Positions 34,655 to 49,546 of a stretch of 64,000 nt of DNA are shown here, piece by piece. The stretch lies in assembly GCA_041674805.1 (NCBI GenBank), contig JBAYVA010000001.1:262612-326611 (forward strand), in the 5' to 3' direction. The translations under genes and the position numbers were made by a program. The stretch is from Candidatus Magasanikiibacteriota bacterium (GTDB lineage: Bacteria > Patescibacteriota > Patescibacteriia > Magasanikbacterales > UBA922). The notes beneath the pieces were generated by a model. That model was not told where the DNA came from, made no database searches, and worked only from the letters and a program-made list of their open reading frames with translations. Position 1 is the first letter of the stretch; every line of letters starts with the position of its first letter.

Positions 34655-34837
34655 ATATTCTATATATTATATATAAATTAAATTACTTTTTGCTTTGATT
34701 TTGTATCAAGACAGACAATATTATATGCTAATTTTACTATAATTTCAAGGGTAACAGTGGATAAATAATCAAACAATAAAAATACCAGTTTATAATCTGG
34801 TATTTTCTATTTTTTTACTTTAAAAGTCAATTTGCCT

Positions 34838-36412
34838 CTATAAGTCATTTCCCGTATATGACATATTAAAACTCTTATTAATTAGAGGAAAATCAGGGAT
34901 TATATTGTTTAAACCAGCCTCACCCAAGGCTGACCAATTGACGAAAGAAGGATCTCTTGGAAATACTCTACTAATATTGCCTTGTGCGTCTGTAGCTACG
35001 AAATAGGCTATTTCTCCACGCCAACCTTCCACCATACTTACAGCGTAAGCACTTTTTTGCAAAATAAGGCTAGTAATATTGGCTACAATACTTTCTCCCT
35101 CAGGTATTTTTTGCAAAGATTCTTGTATTATTTCCAATGATTTACGAATTTCTTTTAGACGAATTTGAAATCTAGCATTGACATCACCATCTTCTTCTAC
35201 AGGTATTTGACCCATAGAAACTTCGGCGTAAGCAGCATAAGGATGATCTACGCGTGTATCATGTTTTACACCTACTGCACGGCCAGCAACACCCAGAGTA
35301 CCTTGATTATTAGCCACTTCAAGAGAAATGATACCAGTACCCTTCAAACGATTTAATACAGAAGCACTATTTTCAGCAATATCAACAACTTCTTCAAAGT
35401 CTTTACTAATATCTTTGAGGATTTTATTTAAATAATCTTTGTTTTCATTAGTTATATCTTTCTTTACTCCACCAACAACATTGACTTGGCGCAAAAATCT
35501 ACTGCCTGTTATTTTTTCATTTATTTGCATCATCATTTCACGCAAACGTCCACCATGAGCTCCACCAAAACTAAAACCAGTATCCATCATAATAGCCCCA
35601 ATATCACCAAAATGATTAGCCAATCTTTCAAGTTCAGCAAAAATGGTTCTCAAATACAAGGCACGTTTTGGAACATTAGTTCCTGCCAATTTTTCTACTG
35701 TCTGACAAAAAGCTAAGGAGTGACTAAAAGAACTATCACCAGAAATTTTTTCTGACAAACGTATTTTATTTTCCAAAGACAAAACTTCAAATAATTTTTC
35801 ACTACCTTTGTGAACATACCCCAAACGTGGCTCAAGTTGTACGATACTTTCTCCAGCCATACTAAAACGAAAATGACCAGGTTCGATAATACCAGCATGA
35901 ATTGGACCAACAGGAATTTCATAAATTCCCTCACCTTTTACTTCTTGAAATTCATATTTACCAGTCACTTCTTTTAATTTAGTTTTCCATTCAAAATCTT
36001 TTCTAAGAGGAAAAACATTACTTGGATAATTTTCATGCAAAATAAGTGGTCTATTGTCTGGAATATCTGTAGCTACTAGACCAAAGAAAGTCTGAATTCT
36101 TCTTTCGTAGTTTAATATTTCAGGTACAATGTTAGCCAATGAAGGAAACTCAGTAGTATTTTTCAATTCAATAAAAGGACAGATAAAAAAATCATCACCA
36201 GGTACAGCAAATAAATACCAGATTTTGAAAGCTCCTTTTTCTTTTCTTTCGTCTGTAGCGGTAACCAACTTAAGTGAAAGCTTTTTTTGATTATGTAACT
36301 CTCCAACAATTTCAGCTATTTGTGAAGAAGTTACTTCGAAGATAGCCAAATTATCATGATACTCTACATTAGCATTCTTTGGAAAGTATGATTGTATTTT
36401 TTCTTTTATCAT
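34838..36412 (-). CDS. fused NuoC/NuoD-like (HycE/HyfG-like) large subunit lacking [NiFe]-ligand cysteines
   Basis: N-terminal 30-kDa-like domain plus GPIHAGIIEPGHFRF, where [NiFe] hydrogenases have RxCGxCxxxH. There is no C-terminal DPCxxC. Confidence 0.75.
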   Translation of the reverse strand: MIKEKIQSYFPKNANVEYHDNLAIFEVTSSQIAEIVGELHNQKKLSLKLVTATDERKEKGAFKIWYLFAVPGDDFFICPFIELKNTTEFPSLANIVPEILNYERRIQTFFGLVATDIPDNRPLILHENYPSNVFPLRKDFEWKTKLKEVTGKYEFQEVKGEGIYEIPVGPIHAGIIEPGHFRFSMAGESIVQLEPRLGYVHKGSEKLFEVLSLENKIRLSEKISGDSSFSHSLAFCQTVEKLAGTNVPKRALYLRTIFAELERLANHFGDIGAIMMDTGFSFGGAHGGRLREMMMQINEKITGSRFLRQVNVVGGVKKDITNENKDYLNKILKDISKDFEEVVDIAENSASVLNRLKGTGIISLEVANNQGTLGVAGRAVGVKHDTRVDHPYAAYAEVSMGQIPVEEDGDVNARFQIRLKEIRKSLEIIQESLQKIPEGESIVANITSLILQKSAYAVSMVEGWRGEIAYFVATDAQGNISRVFPRDPSFVNWSALGEAGLNNIIPDFPLINKSFNMSYTGNDL

Positions 36413-36413
36413 A

Positions 36414-37859
36414 TTAGTATTGCAAAACAGCATTATTAATTAAAGTCTGCAAAAATGGTGGTAAATAAACACTCAAAATAACTATAATAGTAACAAATAA
36501 AATTTGTGGAATAAACAACCAAATATTATTTTCACCTTTTTCAATATTGTCTGGTTTTTCTCCAAAAAACATAGCTGTAAAATGTTTCAAAAAACTTACA
36601 AAAACTAAGGCGAGAAAAAATAAAGCAATCAAACTAACAACAGGATAATCTTTTATACCAGCTGACAAAATATAAAGCTTGGTCATAAACATACCAAATG
36701 GTGGTACACCTGTCACAATCAGAAAACCAATAAGGGAGAGTACACCAGTCACAGGCAAGACTTTCAAAGCTCCTTTGACATTGAAAATTTTGGCAGAACT
36801 ATATTTTAATAACAAATTTCCTGAAGATAAAAAGAGTACAACTTTGACACAAGAATGATAAACTAAATGGAGTATGGCTGCAAAAATACCTAATCCTCCA
36901 AAACCAAAACCAAGTGCCATTACACCAGCATTTTCAATACTAGAATAAGCAAGCAATCTTTTGTAATTTTTGGCATTGAACATAATCAAAGCTGAGACAA
37001 CGATAGACAATAAACCAAAAACAATCAATAGAGTTTGACTAAACAAAGTTCCAACTGCAGTGTCTACAATAACTTTGTATCTAAGCATAATCACAAAAGC
37101 AATTGGTAACAAAGCGCCAGATAACAAAGCGCCTATAGGTGCTGGCGCTTTACTATAAGCATCTGGTTTCCAAGTGTGCATTGGAACAAAACCAATCTTA
37201 GTGCCATAACCAATAAGTACAAAAACGAAAGCAATCTTAGCAAGTAATGGATCAAGATGAACAGCATTGTTAGTCAATGTCTGCCAATCTACCAAACCAG
37301 CACTAGATAAATCAATAGAAGTAAAAAATAATAAAGTTCCAAAAAATCCCAAAAGTAAGCCAACAGAATTGATAATCAAATATTTCCAAGCTCCTTCAAT
37401 TGCTGATGGTTTATTGTAAAAACTTATCAAAAAGGCAGTAGACAGTGTAGTAGCTTCAATAGAAATCCAAGCAAAAATAGGATTACTAGAAGTAATTGCC
37501 AAAAACATTGCCACAAAAAACATATTCAACAAAACAAAATATTGTTTTACACGTGTAAAACCAATAATATTTTTTTGCATTTCTTGACGTAAATATTGTA
37601 CAGAATAAATAGTAGTAGCAAAACCAACAAAACCAAGAACTAAGACGATAATGGCACCCAAAGAATCAATTGAAAAGAATCTTCCAGAACCTGGTATATA
37701 AATTCCTAATGAGGCCACTTTCAAAGCTACAACAATAGACAATACCAAAGAAATTAACGAAGAAACAACTGAAACAACTTCAATAACGACCTTTCTTTTA
37801 GAAAGAAGGTTTATTATAGCTGCAATAAACAAAGTTATTATTATAAAAAAAATTTCCAT
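36414..37859 (-). CDS. NuoN/HyfF-like proton-conducting antiporter-type membrane subunit
   Basis: 481 aa with about 14 TM helices of the NuoL/M/N fold (WKPDAYSKAPAPIGALLSG). Confidence 0.7.
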   Translation of the reverse strand: MEIFFIIITLFIAAIINLLSKRKVVIEVVSVVSSLISLVLSIVVALKVASLGIYIPGSGRFFSIDSLGAIIVLVLGFVGFATTIYSVQYLRQEMQKNIIGFTRVKQYFVLLNMFFVAMFLAITSSNPIFAWISIEATTLSTAFLISFYNKPSAIEGAWKYLIINSVGLLLGFFGTLLFFTSIDLSSAGLVDWQTLTNNAVHLDPLLAKIAFVFVLIGYGTKIGFVPMHTWKPDAYSKAPAPIGALLSGALLPIAFVIMLRYKVIVDTAVGTLFSQTLLIVFGLLSIVVSALIMFNAKNYKRLLAYSSIENAGVMALGFGFGGLGIFAAILHLVYHSCVKVVLFLSSGNLLLKYSSAKIFNVKGALKVLPVTGVLSLIGFLIVTGVPPFGMFMTKLYILSAGIKDYPVVSLIALFFLALVFVSFLKHFTAMFFGEKPDNIEKGENNIWLFIPQILFVTIIVILSVYLPPFLQTLINNAVLQY

Positions 37860-37863
37860 ATTT

Positions 37864-38511
37864 TTAATCTTTTAATTTTTTCATTGAAGAAACATTTAGT
37901 GTTCCAAAATGTTTATACAACATTGAAATAAAAATTGAGGCAATCATAATCCAAATAAAAATATTAAAAATAATTCCCAATTGAAGAGAAGCCGACTGTT
38001 CCAACTCAGCAAAAACAGCAAACAACACAATACTATTTTCAAAAGACAAAATACCAATAATTTGTGACAAAGCACCTTTACGATTGACTATCAAAAATAA
38101 AGAAAGAAACATCGATGATAAAGCAAGAGACAACAACATTTGATGATCTGGTACGATACTAGTCAAAGGAACAAACTTATGTGAATGAGCTATAAAAATT
38201 AAAACAGCAATAACAATTAAGGTAATTGGTGTATTTAAATAAGTACTAACAGAAAAAGACAGAGCATACTTTTTGATCAGACTAATAAAAAACTTTGGTG
38301 CCACAATAACTTTGACAATCAACATCACAAATATAACTAATAACATCCACAAATCTTTGGTCTCAAAAAAAGAATTCAACAATATAATAACAACTACTAA
38401 TGATTGTAAAGCATATGCATATACAGCTGAAAAGTTTTTCTTCATTATCAGCAAAAAGACAACAGATAATAGAACTATCTCAGATAAAAATTGTAAAGTT
38501 AATAGATTCAT
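37864..38511 (-). CDS. HyfE-like membrane subunit (NuoK-related)
   Basis: 215 aa. GILSFENSIVLFAV...HFGTLNVSSMKKLK parallels the E. coli HyfE C-terminus (MENGSHLVL...HGTLDVNNLTALK). Confidence 0.65.
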   Translation of the reverse strand: MNLLTLQFLSEIVLLSVVFLLIMKKNFSAVYAYALQSLVVVIILLNSFFETKDLWMLLVIFVMLIVKVIVAPKFFISLIKKYALSFSVSTYLNTPITLIVIAVLIFIAHSHKFVPLTSIVPDHQMLLSLALSSMFLSLFLIVNRKGALSQIIGILSFENSIVLFAVFAELEQSASLQLGIIFNIFIWIMIASIFISMLYKHFGTLNVSSMKKLKD

Positions 38512-38544
38512 AAGTTATCACTATAAAAAACAAAGTTAGATGTT

Positions 38545-39480
38545 TTATTTAATTGAATAAATAAGTCCAATTGCCACAACATTGAAAATAAAAGAAATAA
38601 ATAATAAATCTGGCAATCTGAAAAATCTAAATTTAGCAATAGTTGATTCTAGCACAGCAATAGCACCACAAAATAAAAATATTTTTATTAAAAAATAAAA
38701 AATACTCAAAAATATTGCAGTAAATCCAACATTAGTATCAAAACCAAATGGAAAAAATAAATTAGCACCAAGTACCATAAAAATAAGTAATTTGTTGGCA
38801 GCAGCCCATTCCATAAGTGCCAAACGTTTACCAGAAAATTCCAAAATCATAGCTTCATGCACCATAGTCAATTCCAAATGAGTTGATGGATTATCAAAAG
38901 GAAATCTAGCATTCTCAGCTAACAAAACAATGAAAAAACCACAGAAAGCAAGTATTGCTGGCAAAAAGTATTGACCACTAATTGATTGACTAAAGTTTGC
39001 AATGTCAAAAAGGTTACTAGAACCAGCTATCAACGCCATAGTTAAAAGTGAAAAAATGAAGCCTCCTTCAGCCAAAGCTGAAATAGTCATTTCACGACTT
39101 GAACCAAAACCACCAAAAGCACTACCAGTATCGACACCAGCCAAAGCCATAAAAAAAGTACCAATAGCTAAAGTATAGACAACAAATAAAATATCACTAG
39201 TAACAAAACCTGCAATAAGTGGAAAAAAAATAGGTATACTAAAGCCAACCACCAAAGTTACAGCAAAAACAATATAAGGAGTAAATCGAAAAACCCAAGA
39301 AGCATCATTACTTATAACTTCATCTTTATGTAAAAGTTTCCAAATATCTCTATAAGGTTGAAAAATATTGGCACCTTGACGATTTTGTAACTTAGCTTTT
39401 ATTTTTCTAATGATACCAATACACAAAGGTGACAACGCTGGTACAAAAAATAATTGGATTATCCAAATAAATATTGACAT
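38545..39480 (-). CDS. NuoH/HycD-like membrane subunit
   Basis: LLAENARFPFDNPSTHLELTMVHEAMILEFSG matches the NuoH signature E..R.PFD..E.ESEL. Confidence 0.75.
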   Translation of the reverse strand: MSIFIWIIQLFFVPALSPLCIGIIRKIKAKLQNRQGANIFQPYRDIWKLLHKDEVISNDASWVFRFTPYIVFAVTLVVGFSIPIFFPLIAGFVTSDILFVVYTLAIGTFFMALAGVDTGSAFGGFGSSREMTISALAEGGFIFSLLTMALIAGSSNLFDIANFSQSISGQYFLPAILAFCGFFIVLLAENARFPFDNPSTHLELTMVHEAMILEFSGKRLALMEWAAANKLLIFMVLGANLFFPFGFDTNVGFTAIFLSIFYFLIKIFLFCGAIAVLESTIAKFRFFRLPDLLFISFIFNVVAIGLIYSIK

Positions 39481-39484
39481 AAAA

Positions 39485-40291
39485 TTATAATATTACGAGT
39501 AGAGCTAGCATAAGAGCTACAAAAATATAAGTGATATAAAGATCGATATTACCATTCTGTATAGTCTTAGCTTTTACAGATAACTTATTGATTACTATAT
39601 GTATAGGTTGATAAAAGTAAGTATTGTATATATTACTAATACTCAAAGTGATTGTTCTTGATTTTGGTAAATATCTATTTTGATCATCATAATATTCAAT
39701 GTTATGTTGAATAGTTGGTTTGAGTAAACCTTTGAAAATCAATATTATTGATCGTGAGAATCCTGTAGCTGTTATTTCAGCACGTGGAGTAAGATCTGTA
39801 CCACAATCCCAAGTATTGGTCTTACATTCTTTTTGTGTTTTGTTAATTACTTTTTTGAAAATTAAAATTACCAAAAAAGTAGAAACCACAAGCAAAAGAA
39901 AAATAAACATACCAGAGATTGAAGAAAATCCATTAGAAACACTCATACTTTGATTAGAAGAAACATTTACAGCAGAAGCTGAATCTTTGAAGATGCTCAA
40001 ACTTTGACTTATGATATTGATAAGACTAATTACATATCCAGAAAATATACCAAACAAAAGTGTCAACAATGCTAAAGCACCCATACCTAAACGCATAGAA
40101 AAAGGAGATTCTTTGGCATGTTTCACTTCCTTACTACGTGGACGAGCCAAAAAAGTAGCTGCAAAAGCTTTGACAAAACAAGCAAGTGCTAATCCCCCAG
40201 TAAATACCAATGATCCTGCTGCCAAAATAAATATCCATTGTGTTACAAAATGCATTTGATTTATTCCTTGAAACAAAGCTTGGTAAGTCAA
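39485..40291 (-). CDS. membrane protein, possibly the split C-terminal part of the NuoL/HyfB-like subunit
   Basis: Overlaps the upstream NuoL-like ORF by 4 nt (ATGA). 268 aa with TM segments. The two ORFs together total about 680 aa, similar to HyfB. Confidence 0.4.
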   Translation of the reverse strand: MTYQALFQGINQMHFVTQWIFILAAGSLVFTGGLALACFVKAFAATFLARPRSKEVKHAKESPFSMRLGMGALALLTLLFGIFSGYVISLINIISQSLSIFKDSASAVNVSSNQSMSVSNGFSSISGMFIFLLLVVSTFLVILIFKKVINKTQKECKTNTWDCGTDLTPRAEITATGFSRSIILIFKGLLKPTIQHNIEYYDDQNRYLPKSRTITLSISNIYNTYFYQPIHIVINKLSVKAKTIQNGNIDLYITYIFVALMLALLVIL

Positions 40292-41535
40292 CCACTCACT
40301 AAAAAACCATTAAACGGTGGCAAGGCAGAAATAGCAATTGAACCAATAAGAAAGAAGAAAGCTGTTTGTGGCATGTACTTTATTAGACCACCATATTCCT
40401 CCATATTACGAGTATGTACTTGATTTATTACTGACCCTGCACTCAAGAAAAGTAAAGCCTTGAAAATAGCATGATTAAGTGTGTGAAATAAGGCTGCACC
40501 AAGGCCAAGCAAAGCCAAAGCTGGTAAATTTAGAGAATAAAAAGTCAAAGCACTGCCCAAACCAAGCAAGATAATACCAATGTTTTCTATACTATGATAA
40601 GCGAGCAATCTCTTGATATCATGCTCAGTAAGAGCATACAAAACTCCAAGTAAAGATGAAATTGAACCAATCACTAATATTACTAATCCCCACCAATATG
40701 GTGCTGGAGCAAGAATGTCCAAAAACAATCTTACCATCATATAGATACCAGTCTTAATCATGACACCTGAGAGTATTGCTGAAACATGAGAAGGGGCAGC
40801 TGGATGAGCGGCTGGTAACCAAATATGCAATGGAATAATACCAGCTTTCAAGCCAAAACCAATAAAAGCAGAAACGAAAATAATATTTTTTATAAATGCT
40901 GGAACAAGAGCTATATTTTCTTTTATCACTAGAAAATCAAAAGAACCAATATACTTAAACAAAAGCAAAAAAGCTAAAATAATAAAAGCTGTACCAATAT
41001 AAGTCATCACCAAATACAAAAAACCTGCCTTTACATTATCTTGATCATTTTTTTCATAAACAATCAAGAAATATGAAGTCACCGCCATTATTTCCCAAAA
41101 AATAAGGAAAAAAAGAGCATTAGAAGATGTTACTACTAAAAGAACACTTGCAATAAAAATATTATAAAAAAATCCAAGAGCACCTATGCTATATTTTTTA
41201 TAGTAATGTCTTATGTAACCTATACCATATATAGAACAAAACAAAGCTATCAAAGAAATTACAAAAACAAAAAAACTAGACAACAAGTCAATATGAAAAG
41301 ACAAAGTGAAAAGTGAAAAAACAGATGTTTTTAGGTCAAACAACAAACTACTTTTTGTTAAAATTGATGTAATCGAAAAAATTAAACCCCATAAAGAACC
41401 AACAATCGCAAAAAAACTATTCCAACCATTTGCGTATTTATCATTTTTGAGGAAAAACAAAGAACCAACAGCTCCAACAAAAAATAAGGAAAGTAAAATA
41501 AAAAAGCTAATTGGTGAGGTAATGATTTCTAACAT
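40288..41535 (-). CDS. NuoL/HyfB/HycC-like antiporter-type membrane subunit (N-terminal part)
   Basis: NuoL/M/N core motifs (LHTLNHAIFKALLFLSAGSV, WLPAAHPAAPSHVSAILSGV). Confidence 0.7.
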   Translation of the reverse strand: MLEIITSPISFFILLSLFFVGAVGSLFFLKNDKYANGWNSFFAIVGSLWGLIFSITSILTKSSLLFDLKTSVFSLFTLSFHIDLLSSFFVFVISLIALFCSIYGIGYIRHYYKKYSIGALGFFYNIFIASVLLVVTSSNALFFLIFWEIMAVTSYFLIVYEKNDQDNVKAGFLYLVMTYIGTAFIILAFLLLFKYIGSFDFLVIKENIALVPAFIKNIIFVSAFIGFGLKAGIIPLHIWLPAAHPAAPSHVSAILSGVMIKTGIYMMVRLFLDILAPAPYWWGLVILVIGSISSLLGVLYALTEHDIKRLLAYHSIENIGIILLGLGSALTFYSLNLPALALLGLGAALFHTLNHAIFKALLFLSAGSVINQVHTRNMEEYGGLIKYMPQTAFFFLIGSIAISALPPFNGFLVSG

Positions 41536-41536
41536 A

Positions 41537-42079
41537 TTATTTTTTTTGTGAAGGTTTATTTTCTATTGTTTCGAGAATTTTAAGTAAGGATTGAAGAATA
41601 AAAGTAGGTGTAGGAGGGTCACCAGGAATTTGATAATCTACAGGTATCACTGAATCGACACCATTTAAAACAGCATAAGAATCTTTGAATATTCCTCCAT
41701 CAATAGCGTCATCCCCTACTGCTACTACAATTTTAGGGTTAGGTGTACCATCATAAGCATCTTTGAGTGCCTTAGCCATATTTTTCGCCACAGGACCTGT
41801 TACAAGTAACATGTCAGCGTGTCTTGGAGATGCCACAAAATGAATACCAAAACGTTCAACATCATAGAAACTGTTAGACAAAGCTACTAGTTCTTGTTCA
41901 CAAGAATTATCTGATCCAGCATCAATTTGTCTGATAGCCAAAGAACCCCTAAATAATTTTTTTACTTTATCTTGTATTTTTTCTCCAATTTCAAAAAAAT
42001 CCTTTTGGTTAAGATCATCTTTTGAAATAGAAATTATATTTTTTGGTGTTTTGAATATTTTTACAAAAAGTTTCAACAT
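41537..42079 (-). CDS. NuoB/HycG-like small subunit lacking Fe-S cluster cysteines
   Basis: RFGIHFVASPRHADMLLVTGPV...VVAVGDDAIDGGIF...GVDSVIPVDYQIPGDPP. NuoB has GACA and PGCPP at these positions, so the Cys are replaced by Asp. Confidence 0.75.
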   Translation of the reverse strand: MLKLFVKIFKTPKNIISISKDDLNQKDFFEIGEKIQDKVKKLFRGSLAIRQIDAGSDNSCEQELVALSNSFYDVERFGIHFVASPRHADMLLVTGPVAKNMAKALKDAYDGTPNPKIVVAVGDDAIDGGIFKDSYAVLNGVDSVIPVDYQIPGDPPTPTFILQSLLKILETIENKPSQKK

Positions 42080-42263: not shown

Positions 42264-42692
42264 TTATCTTAATTTTCTGTATTTGTTGGCAACCCTGATT
42301 CTGTTCATTTCTTTATCAATAAGTGCTTGCAGTCTAGCATAATCAACATCTTCAGTATTTTTGACTTTTTCCATTTCTTCCTCAGCCCTCTTACGAGCTT
42401 CTTCAGCTCTAGCAAGATCAATATTATCAGCTCTTTCAGCACTATCAGCCAAGATGACTAATTCACTATTTGCTCTCACTTCCAAAAAACCACCAGAGAT
42501 AGCATAAGGATGTTCACCATCTTTATCTTTGATTCTCATTTCTCCAGCTTGAAGAACAGAAACCATAGGAATATGGCTTGGCAATACGGTAATTTCACCA
42601 GAAGTTGTTGGAATACTTACTTGAAAAACATCATTTTTGTAAACTTTTTTTTCTGGTGTGATTATTGTAAATTTTAAAGTTTGTGTTGACAT
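42264..42692 (-). CDS. atpC: F1 ATP synthase epsilon subunit
   Basis: N-terminal beta-sandwich plus C-terminal helical hairpin. Position after atpD. Confidence 0.85.
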   Translation of the reverse strand: MSTQTLKFTIITPEKKVYKNDVFQVSIPTTSGEITVLPSHIPMVSVLQAGEMRIKDKDGEHPYAISGGFLEVRANSELVILADSAERADNIDLARAEEARKRAEEEMEKVKNTEDVDYARLQALIDKEMNRIRVANKYRKLR

Positions 42693-42781
42693 AGATACAA
42701 ATTTTATCTCAATATATCTCTATTTTATCTCTATCTTATTATAAGGAGATAAATGGAGATAATGTAGAGATATGGTTTTAT
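42693..42781. repeat. GAGATAA-type repeat element inserted between atpD and atpC
   Basis: atatctctattttatctctatc ... aaggagataaatggagataatgtagagatat (imperfect inverted repeat). Confidence 0.5.
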
Positions 42782-44173
<1,392 letters not shown>

Positions 44174-44200
44174 TTAGTTGATTTGTTTTTAAAATATTTA

Positions 44201-45166
44201 TTAATTTAATGCTGCAGCACCACCAGCAATTTCTGCGATTTCTTGAGTAATAGCAGCTTGTCTAGTCTTGTTATAAGTAAGATTCAATTCTTTGATCATA
44301 TCATTTGCTGAGTCACCTGCATTTTTCATAGCCAACATGCGAGCACTGTGTTCACTAGCAGAGCTTTCAAGCAAAGATTGATATATTTGCATTTCTACAA
44401 GTCTAGGTAAAATTGTTTTCAAAACTTCAGCCTTACCTGGTTCAAATAAGTATTCATTCAATTGTTCTTGTTTTCCTTTATTCAAAGTTCTATCTTTTAG
44501 GTCTTCATCACGACCAAGTTCAGTAATCATTTTTTCCAAATCAAATTCTGAAATTGGTAAAACTTGACGAATTTTAGCTTCTTGAGCCACAGCTGAACGA
44601 TAATCTGTATAAGATACTACAACTTTATCATATTTTTTTTCTATATAATTTCCAATTATCATCTGTGAAGCTGTCATAACATCTTCCAAAACCGGTTTAT
44701 CTGAAATACTATTGAAAGAAGCAATCAAGTTGTAACCGTGTTTTTTACAAAAATCAGCACCTTTTTTACCAATACCAATCACATCTACTTCCACACTTTC
44801 ACTAGGCTGAGTATGTTTATTACGAGCACGTTGAAAACTAATATTTCTTGGATCTTTTAGTTGAGCTGCAGTTTTTTTGATAATATTGGAATTGAAACTT
44901 CCACACAAACCACGATTGGAAGTAATCAAAATTAACAATATTCTTTTTACTTGTCTTATTTCGAGCAAAGGCATTGATTCCTTTTCAGTCTTTGACAGAT
45001 TTATCAACAAATCCCACGCAGTAGTAGCGTATTCTCTAGTATCCAAAGCAGCCTGCACAGCTTTGCGCATTTTGGCAGCCGAAACCATTTCCATCGCCTT
45101 AGTAATTTTTTTGGTGTTGGAAACTGATTTGATTCTAGTTTTGATTGCTTTAGCACTTACAGCCAT
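44201..45166 (-). CDS. atpG: F1 ATP synthase gamma subunit
   Basis: Conserved N- and C-terminal helices (AITQEIAEIAGGAAAL). Confidence 0.9.
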   Translation of the reverse strand: MAVSAKAIKTRIKSVSNTKKITKAMEMVSAAKMRKAVQAALDTREYATTAWDLLINLSKTEKESMPLLEIRQVKRILLILITSNRGLCGSFNSNIIKKTAAQLKDPRNISFQRARNKHTQPSESVEVDVIGIGKKGADFCKKHGYNLIASFNSISDKPVLEDVMTASQMIIGNYIEKKYDKVVVSYTDYRSAVAQEAKIRQVLPISEFDLEKMITELGRDEDLKDRTLNKGKQEQLNEYLFEPGKAEVLKTILPRLVEMQIYQSLLESSASEHSARMLAMKNAGDSANDMIKELNLTYNKTRQAAITQEIAEIAGGAAALN

Positions 45167-45237
45167 ATAATTTAATAAAAAGTTTAAAGTTTAAAGTATC
45201 TGTGTTAATCCGCGTCATTATCTGATTATTCTGCGTC

Positions 45238-46725
45238 TTATTTCTTAAATTCTTCACAAACACCTTTCAAATCCGCAATAATACTATCATCCCATTCACC
45301 TTTAGAGATTTTTTCTAACAAAGATTGGTGACCACCTCTAACAAAATCCAAAAATTTTTCTTCTGTTTTCAAAATATCAGTAACAGCAACATCATCAAAA
45401 TAACCGCTATCTACTGCAAAAATAGAAGCAACTTGATCTTCAACATGCATTGGACTATATTGAGGTTGTTTCATAAGTTCTACTACTCTAGCACCTCTAT
45501 CCAATTGTTTCTTTGTTTCGACATCTAGATCACTAGCAAATTGAGCAAAAGCTTCAAGTTCACGATATTGAGCAAGAGCAAGCTTAATTTTACCAGAAAC
45601 TTTTTTCATTGGTTTGGTTTGAGCAGCACCACCTACACGAGAAACTGAAATACCGACATTAACAGCTGGACGAATACCCTTGAAAAACAAATCTGTTTCC
45701 AAGAAAATTTGTCCATCAGTGATAGAAATTACGTTGGTTGGAATATAAGCAGTCACGTCAGAAGCTTGTGTTTCAATAATAGGCAAAGCGGTGATAGATC
45801 CACCACCATGTTCTTTGTTCAAGTTACAAGCACGTTCCAAAAGACGGGAATGAAGATAAAAAACATCTCCAGGATAAGCTTCACGTCCTGGTGGGCGTCT
45901 TAGAAGCAAAGAAATTTCACGATAAGCCCAAGCTTGTTTTGTCAAATCATCATAAACGATTAAGACATCTTCACCTTTATCAGCGAAGTATTCAGCCATA
46001 GTTACACCAGCATATGGAGCAATAAAAGACATAGCAGCAGGATCAGATGCACCAGCGACAACAACAGTTGTATATTCCATAGCACCATTTTCTTCAAGTT
46101 TAGCTACGATACGAGCTACTTTTGACTCTTTTTGTCCAATAGCTACATAAATACATTTCATGTTTTGACCTTTTTGGTTGATGATAGCATCAATTGCAAT
46201 AGCTGTTTTACCAGTTTGACGATCACCAATGATAAGCTCACGTTGTCCACGTCCAATTGGAATCATAGCGTCAATAGCTTTGATACCAGTCTGTACAGGA
46301 ACACCAACAGGTTGACGACTCATCACACCAGGAGCTGTTTTTTCGATAGGATAAAATTCTTTTGTAACAATATCACCTTTACCATCAATAGCTTGACCAA
46401 GAGCATTTACCACACGACCAATCACTTTTTCACCAACTGGTACTGACAAAATTCTACCAGTTCTTTTGACAGTGTCACCTTCTTTGATTTTTTCATATTC
46501 ACCAAGAATCATGGCACCAACAGTCTCTTCTTCCAAATTCAAAGCTACACCCATGATACCACCTGGGAATTCAAGCATCTCTTGAGATTGACAACTTGTC
46601 AGACCACTCATACGAGCAATACCGTCCCCTACTTCAATAACAGTACCGACTTCTTCTACTTCTACTGTTTTTTGAAAAGCAGAAATATGTTTTTTTAGTT
46701 CTTCGATTACTTGATTTGTAGACAT
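45238..46725 (-). CDS. atpA: F1 ATP synthase alpha subunit
   Basis: [12 protein letters not shown]-loop; 495 aa. Confidence 0.97.
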
Positions 46726-46801
46726 ATGTTTTTTTACTAATCTTGAGCGGAACGAAAGATCTGTAGACCCTGCGAACGCTTCTTTTAATTTAAATGTTTT
46801 T

Positions 46802-47188
46802 TTAAATAGTTAAACTTTTTTTTAAATTTGCCAATTGTGTTTTCACACTAGCATCCAATATTTTATCTTCTATTTTCACTCTAATACCACCTATCAAATT
46901 TTTATCAATCTTTTCTTGAACAAAAACTTCTTTACCAAAAGATTCTTTAATTTTTTTGATAATTTCAGTATCCAAATCTCTTGCAGAAGTCACTTCCAAT
47001 TCAACTATTCCTTGTTTTTTCTTAAGAATAGTTTCAAATTCAGCTATAATATTATTGGTTTGTTTTATTTTGTGTTTCTTAGCTAATAGACCCACAAAAT
47101 TTTTCAAAACAATATCTAAATCACTAGCATTCAAACCAATAGTCAATTCGTAAAGAGCTTCAGCAAATTGTTTATTAGAAATTTTCAT
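46802..47188 (-). CDS. atpH: F1 ATP synthase delta (OSCP) subunit, short form
   Basis: 128 aa. C-terminal [18 protein letters not shown] matches the delta consensus; the N-terminal part is shorter than typical. Confidence 0.6.
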
Positions 47189-47295
47189 AAATTTACGTCA
47201 TTCCGAGCGGAGCGAGGAATCTTTCCTGGCAACATCTCAGTATAAATGATTAAACGATCAAATGATTCTAAAATACTTTTTCAATTAATTTATTA

Positions 47296-47856
47296 TTATT
47301 TTTTTAGACTAGCTAAACTATCTTCAATTATTTTTTTGTCAATTTTACCATCCATTTTTTCATTCAAGATTTTTTCTAAAGCAGTTACAATAAGTGTAGC
47401 TGATTCCTGTCTAATCTCTTCCATCATTTGTACTTTTTCTGTTTGAATACTTTTTTTAGCTTGATCCACAATCACTTCGACTTCACTTTTAGCTTTTACT
47501 TTCATATCCTCACCAAGTTGCTTAGCATCAGTATGTGCTTTTTCAATTAATTTATTAGCTTCGCCTTTGGCTTCTTTCAATTTATCTTGATATTCTTTTT
47601 CACTAAGAGCTAAATTAGTTTCAATTTCTTTAGCATTATCAATACTATCATCAATCATTTTTTTACGTTCAGCCAATGTCTTAGTCAAAGGTTTTAAAAT
47701 CAAAAACCACAGAATAACCGCAACAACAGTAAAGTTAATAAGTTGAAAAACAAAAAGTTGAGCATTTAAACCCAAAGATGCTGGTAAACTTTGTTCAGCG
47801 ACGCCTGTTTCCTCATGTGTATTTAATGTTTCTTCTGTCATAATAATATTAAACAA
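47296..47856 (-). CDS. atpF: Fo ATP synthase b subunit
   Basis: Single N-terminal TM helix plus a long charged helix. Position between atpE and atpH. Confidence 0.7.
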   Translation of the reverse strand: MFNIIMTEETLNTHEETGVAEQSLPASLGLNAQLFVFQLINFTVVAVILWFLILKPLTKTLAERKKMIDDSIDNAKEIETNLALSEKEYQDKLKEAKGEANKLIEKAHTDAKQLGEDMKVKAKSEVEVIVDQAKKSIQTEKVQMMEEIRQESATLIVTALEKILNEKMDGKIDKKIIEDSLASLKK

Positions 47857-47966
47857 GTAAATAATTATTTGTGTTTATTTGTGTAACATTTGTGTTATTT
47901 TCAAACAAACAAACCAATGGAACCAAGTTTACCAGTTTTTAACTAGTAAACTCAGTCTACAACGAT

Positions 47967-48254
<288 letters not shown>

Positions 48255-48325
48255 TTATAAATTAAGTGACCTTTCGATCTTAGTCCCCTTGAAAATTTCA
48301 AGAAGATTGAAGATTGAAATGTCTT

Positions 48326-49144
48326 TTAGTGATGTGCTTCTTCTTCATCTCCATGTGGAACAGAAGTGGCTACCGTCATATATACCAAAGTAAGCATCGC
48401 AAATACCGTAGCTTGAATCACACCTACCAATATCTCAAGTAACATGAAAGGTGTTGGAACAAAAGCCGCAACTAAAGCCGAAATCACAGAAATCAAGATT
48501 TCTCCAGCAAAAATATTACCAAAAAGACGTAGAGAAAGAGATACAACTTTTGCAACCTCAGAAACTATTTCGATAAGACCCACACCAAATTCAATGATAG
48601 CTGCAAAAACAGCAATGAACCCTTCGCCAATACCATTTTTGAATTTTTTAAAACTTTTGAAAACATTTTTTATTTGTACAAACTTACCCAAATGTGTAAA
48701 AACACCAATAGTAGCAAAAGCATAGAGATGCGAACCAATCACAGAAACAAGTGCCATAGCGAGAGTAAGATTCAAATCAGTGTTGGCAGGACGAAGCAAC
48801 ATATTGTGTCCAAAAGTAATACTTCCTGTACCTGGTAAAAGTCCAAGCCAATTTGATAACAAAATAAAAAAGAAGATAGCACCAACTATTGGCAAAAATC
48901 TAATAGTCTTTTTTCTATCTCCTGTAACTTGATCAAAATAACCAAGTAGCGTGTCTAAGAAAAATTCACTAGCATTTTGTAATTTTCCTGGTTTCAAACT
49001 TATACTTCTTTTTATAAAAATTCCTAAAATCAAAAAAATGACAATCGCAAGCCAAGCATTTACCATAGTATTGGTAATATTTAGATTACCAATGTGAAAT
49101 ACTGCTTCTGGAGCAAGTGTAGGAATGTGAATTTCTGCAGCCAT
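48326..49144 (-). CDS. atpB: Fo ATP synthase a subunit
   Basis: Conserved Arg in LSLRLFGNIFAGE; 272 aa. Confidence 0.85.
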   Translation of the reverse strand: MAAEIHIPTLAPEAVFHIGNLNITNTMVNAWLAIVIFLILGIFIKRSISLKPGKLQNASEFFLDTLLGYFDQVTGDRKKTIRFLPIVGAIFFFILLSNWLGLLPGTGSITFGHNMLLRPANTDLNLTLAMALVSVIGSHLYAFATIGVFTHLGKFVQIKNVFKSFKKFKNGIGEGFIAVFAAIIEFGVGLIEIVSEVAKVVSLSLRLFGNIFAGEILISVISALVAAFVPTPFMLLEILVGVIQATVFAMLTLVYMTVATSVPHGDEEEAHH

Positions 49145-49225
49145 AACTTTAGTTATAAAGTTTGTAAAGTCAAAAGTTTATGAAGTCTTTTGTTTACAAC
49201 AATTAATTTTAAAAAATATTTGTGT

Positions 49226-49546
49226 CTATTTGTGAGTATTTGTGTCATCCCATTCATTTTTAACGGAATTGTCTTTTGATTTATCACTTATTTTTTCATC
49301 TAACTTCTTATACTCTTCCCCATACAACTTAGCTTTCTTATAAATCATTTTAGTAGAAAGAAAGGCAGCCAAGAGAAAAGCTCCAATAGTAAACCAAGGA
49401 GCGTATCCATATTTACCTTCAAGCCACTGACCAATTAAGACAAAAACTATAATAGGTACAGCAATTATGGCTCCAAAATCACCCACAATACGTAGACCCA
49501 ACATCATATATTTTCTATCTTTTGGGTCTTCTGGTAAAAGAGACAT
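49226..49546 (-). CDS. AtpZ/AtpI-family small membrane protein (first gene of the atp operon)
   Basis: 106 aa with two TM helices, at the 5' end of the operon. Confidence 0.5.
   Translation of the reverse strand: MSLLPEDPKDRKYMMLGLRIVGDFGAIIAVPIIVFVLIGQWLEGKYGYAPWFTIGAFLLAAFLSTKMIYKKAKLYGEEYKKLDEKISDKSKDNSVKNEWDDTNTHK

Follow-up and report, generated by a model that had tools for sequence, protein, structure and literature searches.

A cofactor-less Ehr complex encoded beside the ATP synthase operon in a patescibacterial genome

Organisation of the locus

The stretch of DNA analysed here (64 kb of contig JBAYVA010000001.1 from a Candidatus Magasanikiibacteriota bacterium, hereafter the window) carries on its minus strand, from position 42079 to 34838, a module of genes related to those for complex I and group 4 [NiFe] hydrogenases, immediately next to an ATP synthase (atp) operon. 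Subunits were assigned by Pfam and NCBIfam profile searches and by matches to PDB sequences, which bear out the gene identities and the minus-strand order that an original prediction had read from the sequence alone. We are highly confident that the module encodes a six-subunit Ehr (energy-converting-hydrogenase-related) complex without the usual cofactor ligands, in the order EhrS-A-B-C-D-L (names follow the Geobacter nomenclature, PMC7894505): the NuoL-like EhrA, the NuoH-like EhrB, the HyfE-like EhrC, the NuoN-like EhrD, EhrL and EhrS lie together in one cluster, and the Ehr-wide motifs HAGIIEPG and DFPLINKS occur in EhrL. The headline of that prediction, a cofactor-less Ehr beside the ATP synthase, stands once several details are corrected; NiFe-less Ehr is already known from the candidate phyla radiation (CPR, or Patescibacteria).

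In transcription order, EhrS (41537-42079, 180 aa) is a NuoB/HycG-like small subunit (Oxidored_q6, 3e-25; HycG 7z0s_G, 8e-30; MbhJ 6cfw_J, 2e-29), followed by the antiporter-like, HyfB/NuoL-type EhrA (39485-41535, 683 aa after the repair described below), which matches the NCBIfam profile for hydrogenase 4 subunit B over positions 10-405 and then 410-667 of 669. EhrB (38545-39480, 311 aa) is the HycD/NuoH-like subunit HyfC (Pfam NADHdh, 1e-45; HycD 7z0s_D, 4e-41), EhrC (37864-38511, 215 aa) a small HyfE-like membrane subunit (NCBIfam hydrogenase 4 membrane subunit, 2e-15), and EhrD (36414-37859, 481 aa) an antiporter-like subunit of the HyfF/NuoN type (Pfam, NCBIfam and PDB-sequence matches). 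The last gene encodes EhrL (34838-36433), a fused NuoC/NuoD, HycE-like large subunit (Pfam and NCBIfam; HycE, 3e-68) whose true start, judged against its relatives, is likely to be 36412, giving the 524 aa found in those proteins. The Pfam Proton_antipo_M domain is present in HyfB and HyfF only, so that the module has two antiporter-like subunits and not the three originally counted; HyfE is a small NuoK-like subunit, with weak Oxidored_q2 (NuoK) matches on its orthologues and no match among PDB sequences.

The module was first described as having seven genes; it has six, the two HyfB pieces being a single frameshifted gene. In the window HyfB appears as two pieces of 415 and 268 aa owing to a 1-nt deletion in a T6 homopolymer (40301-40306, minus strand) within the GFFSEW motif of transmembrane helix (TM) 12; the junction reads GGT TTT TTA GTG AGT GGT TGA, and the ATGA overlap proposed for the two pieces does not exist. 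Three relatives at 79-85% identity have T7 at this position, the one extra T giving GGTTTTTTTAGTGAGTGG, which codes for the canonical TM12 motif GFFSEWLTYQ, and HyfB is a single open reading frame (ORF) of 666-694 aa in all 19 of the clade relatives examined. The repaired 683-aa protein matches letter for letter a protein of a sibling assembly in ENA (743,922-bp contig), the truncated 415-aa form being that of the NCBI/JGI assembly (474,546-bp contig). On these comparisons the split reads as an assembly error or a within-population variant; a designed split or a programmed frameshift was rejected, since the relatives and the sibling assembly encode intact HyfB.

EhrL has an exact counterpart (100% identity) among the annotated proteins of a Candidatus Magasanikbacteria (CPR/Patescibacteria) metagenome-assembled genome (MAG). 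The window has a G+C content of ~30%, and recent horizontal transfer of the module into the genome was rejected because its composition is the same as that of its flanks.

Loss of cofactor ligands

The module was compared with 166 loci (denoted L with a number) taken from GTDB species genomes and from JGI metagenomes with long contigs. The canonical group consists of 90 loci whose flanks were usable: Ehr with large subunits of the S-[STE]-S-G type, found in Nitrospira, Acidobacteria, Rokubacteria, Verrucomicrobia, Thaumarchaeota and Firmicutes among other taxa, together with a few true hydrogenases with CCCC large subunits.

Alignment with HycE confirms that the NiFe motifs RxCGxC and DPCxxC have gone from the large subunit: RVCGICGFAHS is replaced in EhrL by KISGDSSFSHS and DPCYSC by NMSYTG, so that all four NiFe cysteines are absent. 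The ligand positions are occupied by S231, S234, S525 and G528 and are likewise ligand-free in every member of the clade to which the window module belongs. The C-terminus stops 3 residues past the last former NiFe ligand, at the point where hydrogenase large subunits are proteolytically matured. At the quinone site, Y87 of Thermus thermophilus Nqo4 aligns to a glycine of EhrL (G232) and H38 to an isoleucine.

In the small subunit, alignment with HycG and MbhJ (C-N-G-C to D57-N-S-C60; G-x-C to G-D123-D124; PGCPP to PGD154PP) places three aspartates and one retained cysteine at the positions of the proximal [4Fe-4S] cluster (D57/C60/D124/D154). Of the earlier claim that all four cysteines are replaced, the GDD and PGDPP substitutions are therefore upheld and the total loss is not, C60 being kept. 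A C..C…C…C small subunit is found in 90 of the 90 canonical loci; 29 loci lack these cysteines, and the set is absent from every small subunit of the window clade, that of the window included. The Nitrospira sequence GDCAIDCG, for example, corresponds to GDDAIDGG in the window. At EhrS positions 57/59/60/124/154 the clade shows the patterns DACDD, DSCDD, TACDD, DACDN, DSCGD and DAVDD, and its deepest members read SAEGD or TGEGD; the Asp3-Cys site is thus not universal, because these deeper members carry Ser or Thr, Glu or Gly there. Nearer to the window conservation is strong: of the 120 cluster representatives whose small subunits are closest to that of the window, 100% have D57, D123 and D124 and 99% have C60, position 154 holds D in 68% and N in 33%, and 82 of the 120 have one Cys in the whole protein. 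The best-conserved segments of EhrS include the former cluster loops (DAGSDNaCEQEL, GDDAi.GG and IpG.PP), and the site would therefore seem to have been remodelled, not abandoned. An AlphaFold2 model of EhrS built on a 35-sequence alignment was poor (mean predicted local distance difference test score 56, lowest at residues 56-71 and 122-154, i.e. in the former cluster loops) and was not used.

Motif scans located no CxxCxxCxxxC ferredoxin motif in any ORF of the 64-kb window, and no HycF/MbhN/NuoI-type 2x[4Fe-4S] subunit in the window or in ~25 clade loci. The reported lack of NuoI/HycF, NuoE/F/G or a formate dehydrogenase partner is in keeping with these scans, and a hidden redox partner beside the module was rejected, none being conserved across the ~25 loci.

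Phylogeny and conservation

In a neighbour-joining tree of large subunits, a rough one without support values, EhrL groups with Ehr and not with true hydrogenases or NuoD, a placement that agrees with the 91 EhrL positions identically conserved in Ehr with and without the iron–sulphur (FeS) cluster ligands and with Jaffe 2020. The window clade forms one group nested within Ehr beside Nitrospira-type Ehr, and on this sequence evidence FeS-less Ehr is a monophyletic, mostly CPR clade. Its carriers are mainly Magasanik-, Falkow-, Staskawicz-, Nomura-, Morani-, Pacei-, Davies-, Peregrini-, Gracili- and Saccharibacteria; a small number appear to fall outside the CPR, such as the Firestonebacteria MAG at L162. 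At that locus (L162:2751-14567) the FeS-less Ehr directly follows a cytochrome c552-like gene and lies beside genes for carbon monoxide dehydrogenase/acetyl-CoA synthase and a ferredoxin-domain gene; the FeS-less variant therefore also occurs in organisms with a real redox metabolism, here with no atp link.

The small-subunit cysteines are also missing from an unrelated Ehr pair (L111:3630-10818 and L112), which has a SESG large subunit, the gene order A-B-C-D-L-S, [PS]DVGN in the small subunit and no atp neighbour, and which suggests, from its sequences, an independent second loss of the cluster. Two Nitrospirota genomes (L050:4814-19900 and L059) each carry two complete tandem Ehr modules, with SSSG and STSG large subunits.

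The window module is not in decay. Purifying selection acts on all six of its genes, the ratio of nonsynonymous to synonymous substitution rates (dN/dS) against three relatives being 0.07-0.19 for six of six, similar to that of atpC. The canonical Glu/Lys residues of a complex-I-type ion path are invariant. In HyfB, E148 (TM5), K230 (TM7), K261 (TM8), H351/H355/K359 and E414 (TM12) are invariant in the clade, as are E135, K221 and H331/H335/K339 in HyfF, where the TM8 and TM12 lysines are variable, and K67 and E158 in HyfE. In EhrB the TM5-6 loop (PFDNPxTHLELTMxHEAM..E.SG) is strongly conserved, together with several Glu. EhrL has invariant E184 and H187 in the beta1-beta2 loop, D233/H238 where the L1 motif used to be, and D530, and its whole C-terminus, DFPLINKSF..SY.GNDL, is invariant in the clade. 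No EhrL position separates the FeS-less from the FeS-containing group, and the conserved core is therefore unchanged on loss of the cluster.

Comparison with known complexes

Ordinary Ehr (Geobacter sulfurreducens GSU0739-45 and the operons of Nitrospira, Acidobacteria and Rokubacteria) has the same six subunit types as the window module and, like it, a large subunit without NiFe cysteines, the motifs HAGIIEPG, SGDSS and DFPLINKSF..SY.GNDL being common to both; most also lack a HycF/NuoI subunit. The two differ in that ordinary Ehr keeps the four small-subunit cysteines wherever sampled, in gene order (S-A-B-C-D-L in the window, A-B-C-D-L-S in most others) and in neighbourhood, linkage to an atp operon being confined to the window clade whereas ordinary Ehr often has an ArsR-type regulator upstream.

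For every subunit the best structural relatives are the group 4 [NiFe] hydrogenases (Escherichia coli Hyf and Hyc, the latter part of formate hydrogenlyase (FHL), 7z0s; the Pyrococcus membrane-bound hydrogenase (MBH), 6cfw), and HycE shares with EhrL the fusion of NuoC and NuoD. The window module differs from them in lacking the NiFe CxxC pairs, the proximal cluster, the HycF/MbhN ferredoxin subunit and formate dehydrogenase. With complex I (NDH-1) it shares the L-shaped set of NuoB/C/D/H and antiporter-like subunits, the NuoH TM5-6 loop and the NuoD beta1-beta2 loop, but not the N2 cluster, the quinone-site Tyr/His or NuoA/I/J/E/F/G, and HyfE is only weakly NuoK-like. Its likeness to the Mrp antiporter, a redox-independent multi-subunit ion exchanger, lies in the MrpA/MrpD-type subunits with their pattern of TM5 Glu, TM7 Lys and TM12 Lys/Glu, as seen in the Proton_antipo_M matches and invariant residues; the module would be redox-independent likewise if the explanation favoured below is right. 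In contrast to Mrp, it has no MrpB/E/F/G, and it possesses a NuoH-like subunit and a peripheral arm of three domains.

Linkage to the ATP synthase operon

Directly upstream of the module, and running in the same direction as originally described, lies a complete F1Fo atp operon (42264-49546, minus strand; AtpZ/ATPase_gene1, a, c, b, a short delta, alpha, gamma, beta and epsilon, by Pfam). In the 184-bp gap between atpC and EhrS a terminator-like hairpin (42258-42234) is followed by a promoter-like site (42197-42169; TTGACA-17-GAAAAT with TG), and a further terminator-like hairpin (34778-34807, minus strand) closes the module after EhrL; promoter-like and terminator-like sites in the window are consensus matches only. 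The module looks, from these features, to be its own transcription unit and not an extension of the atp operon.

The linkage to the ATPase that the original prediction had singled out for a synteny check recurs across the clade. Counted over 24 non-redundant clade loci, with ~4.3 kb of flank seen upstream and 10 kb downstream, atp genes occur in the flank of 10, against none of the 90 canonical loci of ordinary Ehr and group 4 enzymes (Fisher p = 3e-8, a rough statistic given the short upstream flanks and the relatedness of the loci), the chance expectation of an atp neighbour being 2-5% per locus in a genome of 0.6-1.2 Mb. When all flanking ORFs of 20 clade loci were clustered, the atp operon was the sole recurrent neighbour family.

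Four arrangements were observed. The ehrS gene follows atpC in the same direction in the window, in L003, in the deep-branching L046 and in L165, where the gap is 10 bp; in L010, L081, L082 and L093 the direction is again the same, with inserts of 1-3 kb between the two genes. The atp and Ehr genes are convergent in L086/L166, and in L006 Ehr lies on the opposite strand with atp genes flanking it on both sides. A further locus, L088:1690-11575, reads AtpZ-atpB-atpE-atpF-atpH, then 25 nt, then EhrS-A-B-C-D-L; here the Ehr genes occupy the usual place of atpA-G-D-C, and F1 genes are absent from the next 8.2 kb, up to the contig end.

In the window and in the linked operons alike, the c subunit carries the sequence AFAEA(I/V)AIY; the Ser/Thr that follows the Glu in Na+-binding c-rings is missing, as is their helix-1 Gln. 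By this signature the c subunits are of the H+ type, and a Na+-coupled ATP synthase is unsupported by the c-subunit motifs. The delta subunit of the window operon (46802-47188) has just 128 aa, matching the OSCP profile over 51-172, its N-terminal part being missing or divergent. Between atpE and atpF (47921-47957, minus strand) lies a long hairpin with a 17-bp stem, G-T pairs allowed, and no clear T-tract, which may act in mRNA processing or attenuation.

Downstream of the module, Pfam and NCBIfam identify a CBS-pair gene and then a permease of the CitMHS/ArsB superfamily. The position reported for these genes (the permease then read as ArsB/NhaD) is correct; their proposed membership of the system was rejected, the pair being kept only in the two near relatives L081 and L082 and absent from L096 and all other loci. 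They have promoter-like and terminator-like sites of their own, the promoter-like site of the CBS gene lying at 34748-34720 (minus strand). No credible riboswitch or leader emerged when Rfam was searched with the whole window at gathering thresholds and with the two spacers at E<=1. On a larger scale, ~47 consecutive genes lie on the minus strand between 5733 and 55066 and the cumulative GC skew declines steadily across the window; this strong co-orientation is presumably with replication.

In ordinary Ehr the sole recurrent neighbour found was an ArsR-like regulator. By eye, an ArsR/SmtB-like winged-helix regulator often starts ordinary FeS-containing operons in Acidobacteria, Rokubacteria and similar organisms, and it lies directly upstream in L031, L032, L036, L037, L039, L043, L045, L048, L049, L051, L105, L106, L108 and L124.

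Discussion

The loss of cofactor ligands, the strong conservation of what remains and the adjacency of the atp operon together suggest that the complex probably moves ions without redox chemistry. We tentatively favour, as a prediction, a redox-independent translocator of protons, or of a cation against protons, working with an H+-type F1Fo. That an ion-translocating or ion-sensing device is coupled to the ATPase, as the original prediction proposed, is something we infer from gene neighbourhood. Protons, or a cation exchanged against them, would pass through the E-channel of HyfC and through HyfE, HyfF and HyfB, and gating would be by protonation or cation binding, with no electron transfer, at a conserved cavity joining EhrL, EhrS and the EhrB loop. 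The acidic EhrS site (D57, C60, D123, D124 and D/N154) would form part of this gate. The complex would operate alongside the H+-type F1Fo, which in a fermenter may be expected to hydrolyse ATP and build a proton gradient; the complex could draw on that gradient, or convert it, to extrude cations or maintain pH homeostasis, much like an Mrp antiporter.

Several points weigh against this reading. About half of the clade loci, including all of the non-CPR-looking ones, have no atp gene in the observed flank, the linkage statistics are rough for the reasons given above, and a terminator-like hairpin stands between the window module and atpC. In Mrp and in MBH, Na+ translocation is assigned to the MrpE/F/G-type subunits; because these are absent, cation/H+ exchange stands on weaker ground than simple conduction of H+, and plain gated H+ conduction or some other coupled process is nearly as likely. 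Aspartate ligates FeS clusters in a few proteins, so that the Asp3-Cys site might conceivably hold an unconventional metal centre. Finally, ordinary Ehr is likewise described as being of unknown function (PMC10284858, PMC6349859).

The recurrent atp linkage could instead mean that the complex serves F1Fo in a regulatory or accessory capacity, for instance as a gated proton leak or valve or as a partner in assembly or of a stator-like kind, and is not an autonomous transporter. The order AtpZ-a-c-b-delta-Ehr at L088, where the next 8 kb contain no F1 genes, and the short delta subunit in the window would both suit such a role. A six-subunit complex of 2,300 residues with fully conserved ion-path residues would nevertheless be an expensive means of regulation, half of the loci show no atp linkage and physical contact is hypothetical, and we regard this possibility as unlikely.

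A more active role, also in our view decidedly improbable, is that of an energy converter in which an exergonic non-redox reaction (hydrolysis, decarboxylation or hydration) at the acidic Asp/Cys site and the EhrL cavity, which would bind a substrate or a metal, would pump protons for the ATP synthase; in reverse, the proton gradient would drive such a reaction. The conservation of the former cluster loops, which rank among the best-conserved segments of EhrS, the invariance of the EhrL cavity residues and C-terminus, and the fusion of the operon with atp genes in L165 and L088 are what such an enzyme would lead one to expect, and there is a conceptual precedent in the cyanobacterial NDH-1MS complex, described as coupling CO2 hydration to antiporter-like subunits (bioRxiv 10.64898/2026.08.03.742399). 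Set against this, the complex has no catalytic motif or candidate substrate, the deeper members with SAEGD or TGEGD do not share the Asp3-Cys site, and EhrL shows no clade-specific changes.

An equally doubtful proposal is that the complex is still a redox enzyme, with an Asp-ligated cluster or metal in EhrS or with electrons delivered directly by a soluble partner, e.g. a ferredoxin, encoded elsewhere. The retention of C60 in 99% of homologues and the known cases of aspartate ligation of [4Fe-4S] clusters would allow for the former, and the genome view, which covers 64 kb only, for the latter. Yet three of the four ligands are carboxylates, replaced by Ser, Thr, Glu or Gly in deeper members, most homologues have a single Cys, and the NiFe site, the quinone-site Tyr/His, HycF/NuoI and any conserved redox neighbour in ~25 loci are all missing. 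The frameshift in the window assembly and the loss of all usual cofactor ligands might suggest a hydrogenase or Ehr operon that has become a decaying, functionless relic, but this is highly improbable given dN/dS values of 0.07-0.19 in six of six genes, functional residues invariant across hundreds of homologues at 60-85% identity, and HyfB intact in all relatives and in the sibling assembly of the same organism.

That Ehr complexes without NiFe ligands had already been described is correct for CPR: Jaffe 2020 (PMC7304191) describes CPR sequences as a monophyletic Ehr subclade without the metal-binding cysteines of the large subunit that 'likely cannot interact with H2'. The Ehr passages of that paper are silent on the small subunit, and ATP synthase is nowhere mentioned in it. 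Neither loss of the small-subunit cluster nor atp linkage was found in the searchable full-text literature, the original description of Ehr (Marreiros 2013) lying outside its reach; the clade-wide Asp/Cys replacement of the last FeS site and the varied, recurrent atp linkage appear to be unreported in that literature.

For CPR bacteria, where membrane energisation and the use of F1Fo are at issue, a conserved complex that travels with the atp genes is a concrete and testable candidate. At its most ambitious, and with low probability, FeS-less Ehr could be an unrecognised chemiosmotic machine, a pump or gradient-driven engine of complex I architecture with a non-redox input at the acidic site, integrated functionally and perhaps physically with Fo/F1. 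Such integration is hinted at because the L088 operon runs AtpZ-a-c-b-delta-EhrSABCDL, and if true this would supply the missing means by which fermentative CPR bacteria make or use a membrane potential. To our knowledge, the characterised members of complex I, MBH, the membrane-bound sulfane reductase (MBS) and FHL all translocate ions in a process coupled to electron transfer that involves at least the NuoB-type cluster. The FeS-less clade, widespread, under purifying selection and with the entire coupling apparatus retained, would be a natural 'redox-dead' machine that could reveal what the interface of the peripheral arm and NuoH does apart from electron transfer, and the fact that EhrL is unchanged across FeS-containing and FeS-less forms bears on the function of all Ehr, whose conserved core may have no redox-catalytic role.

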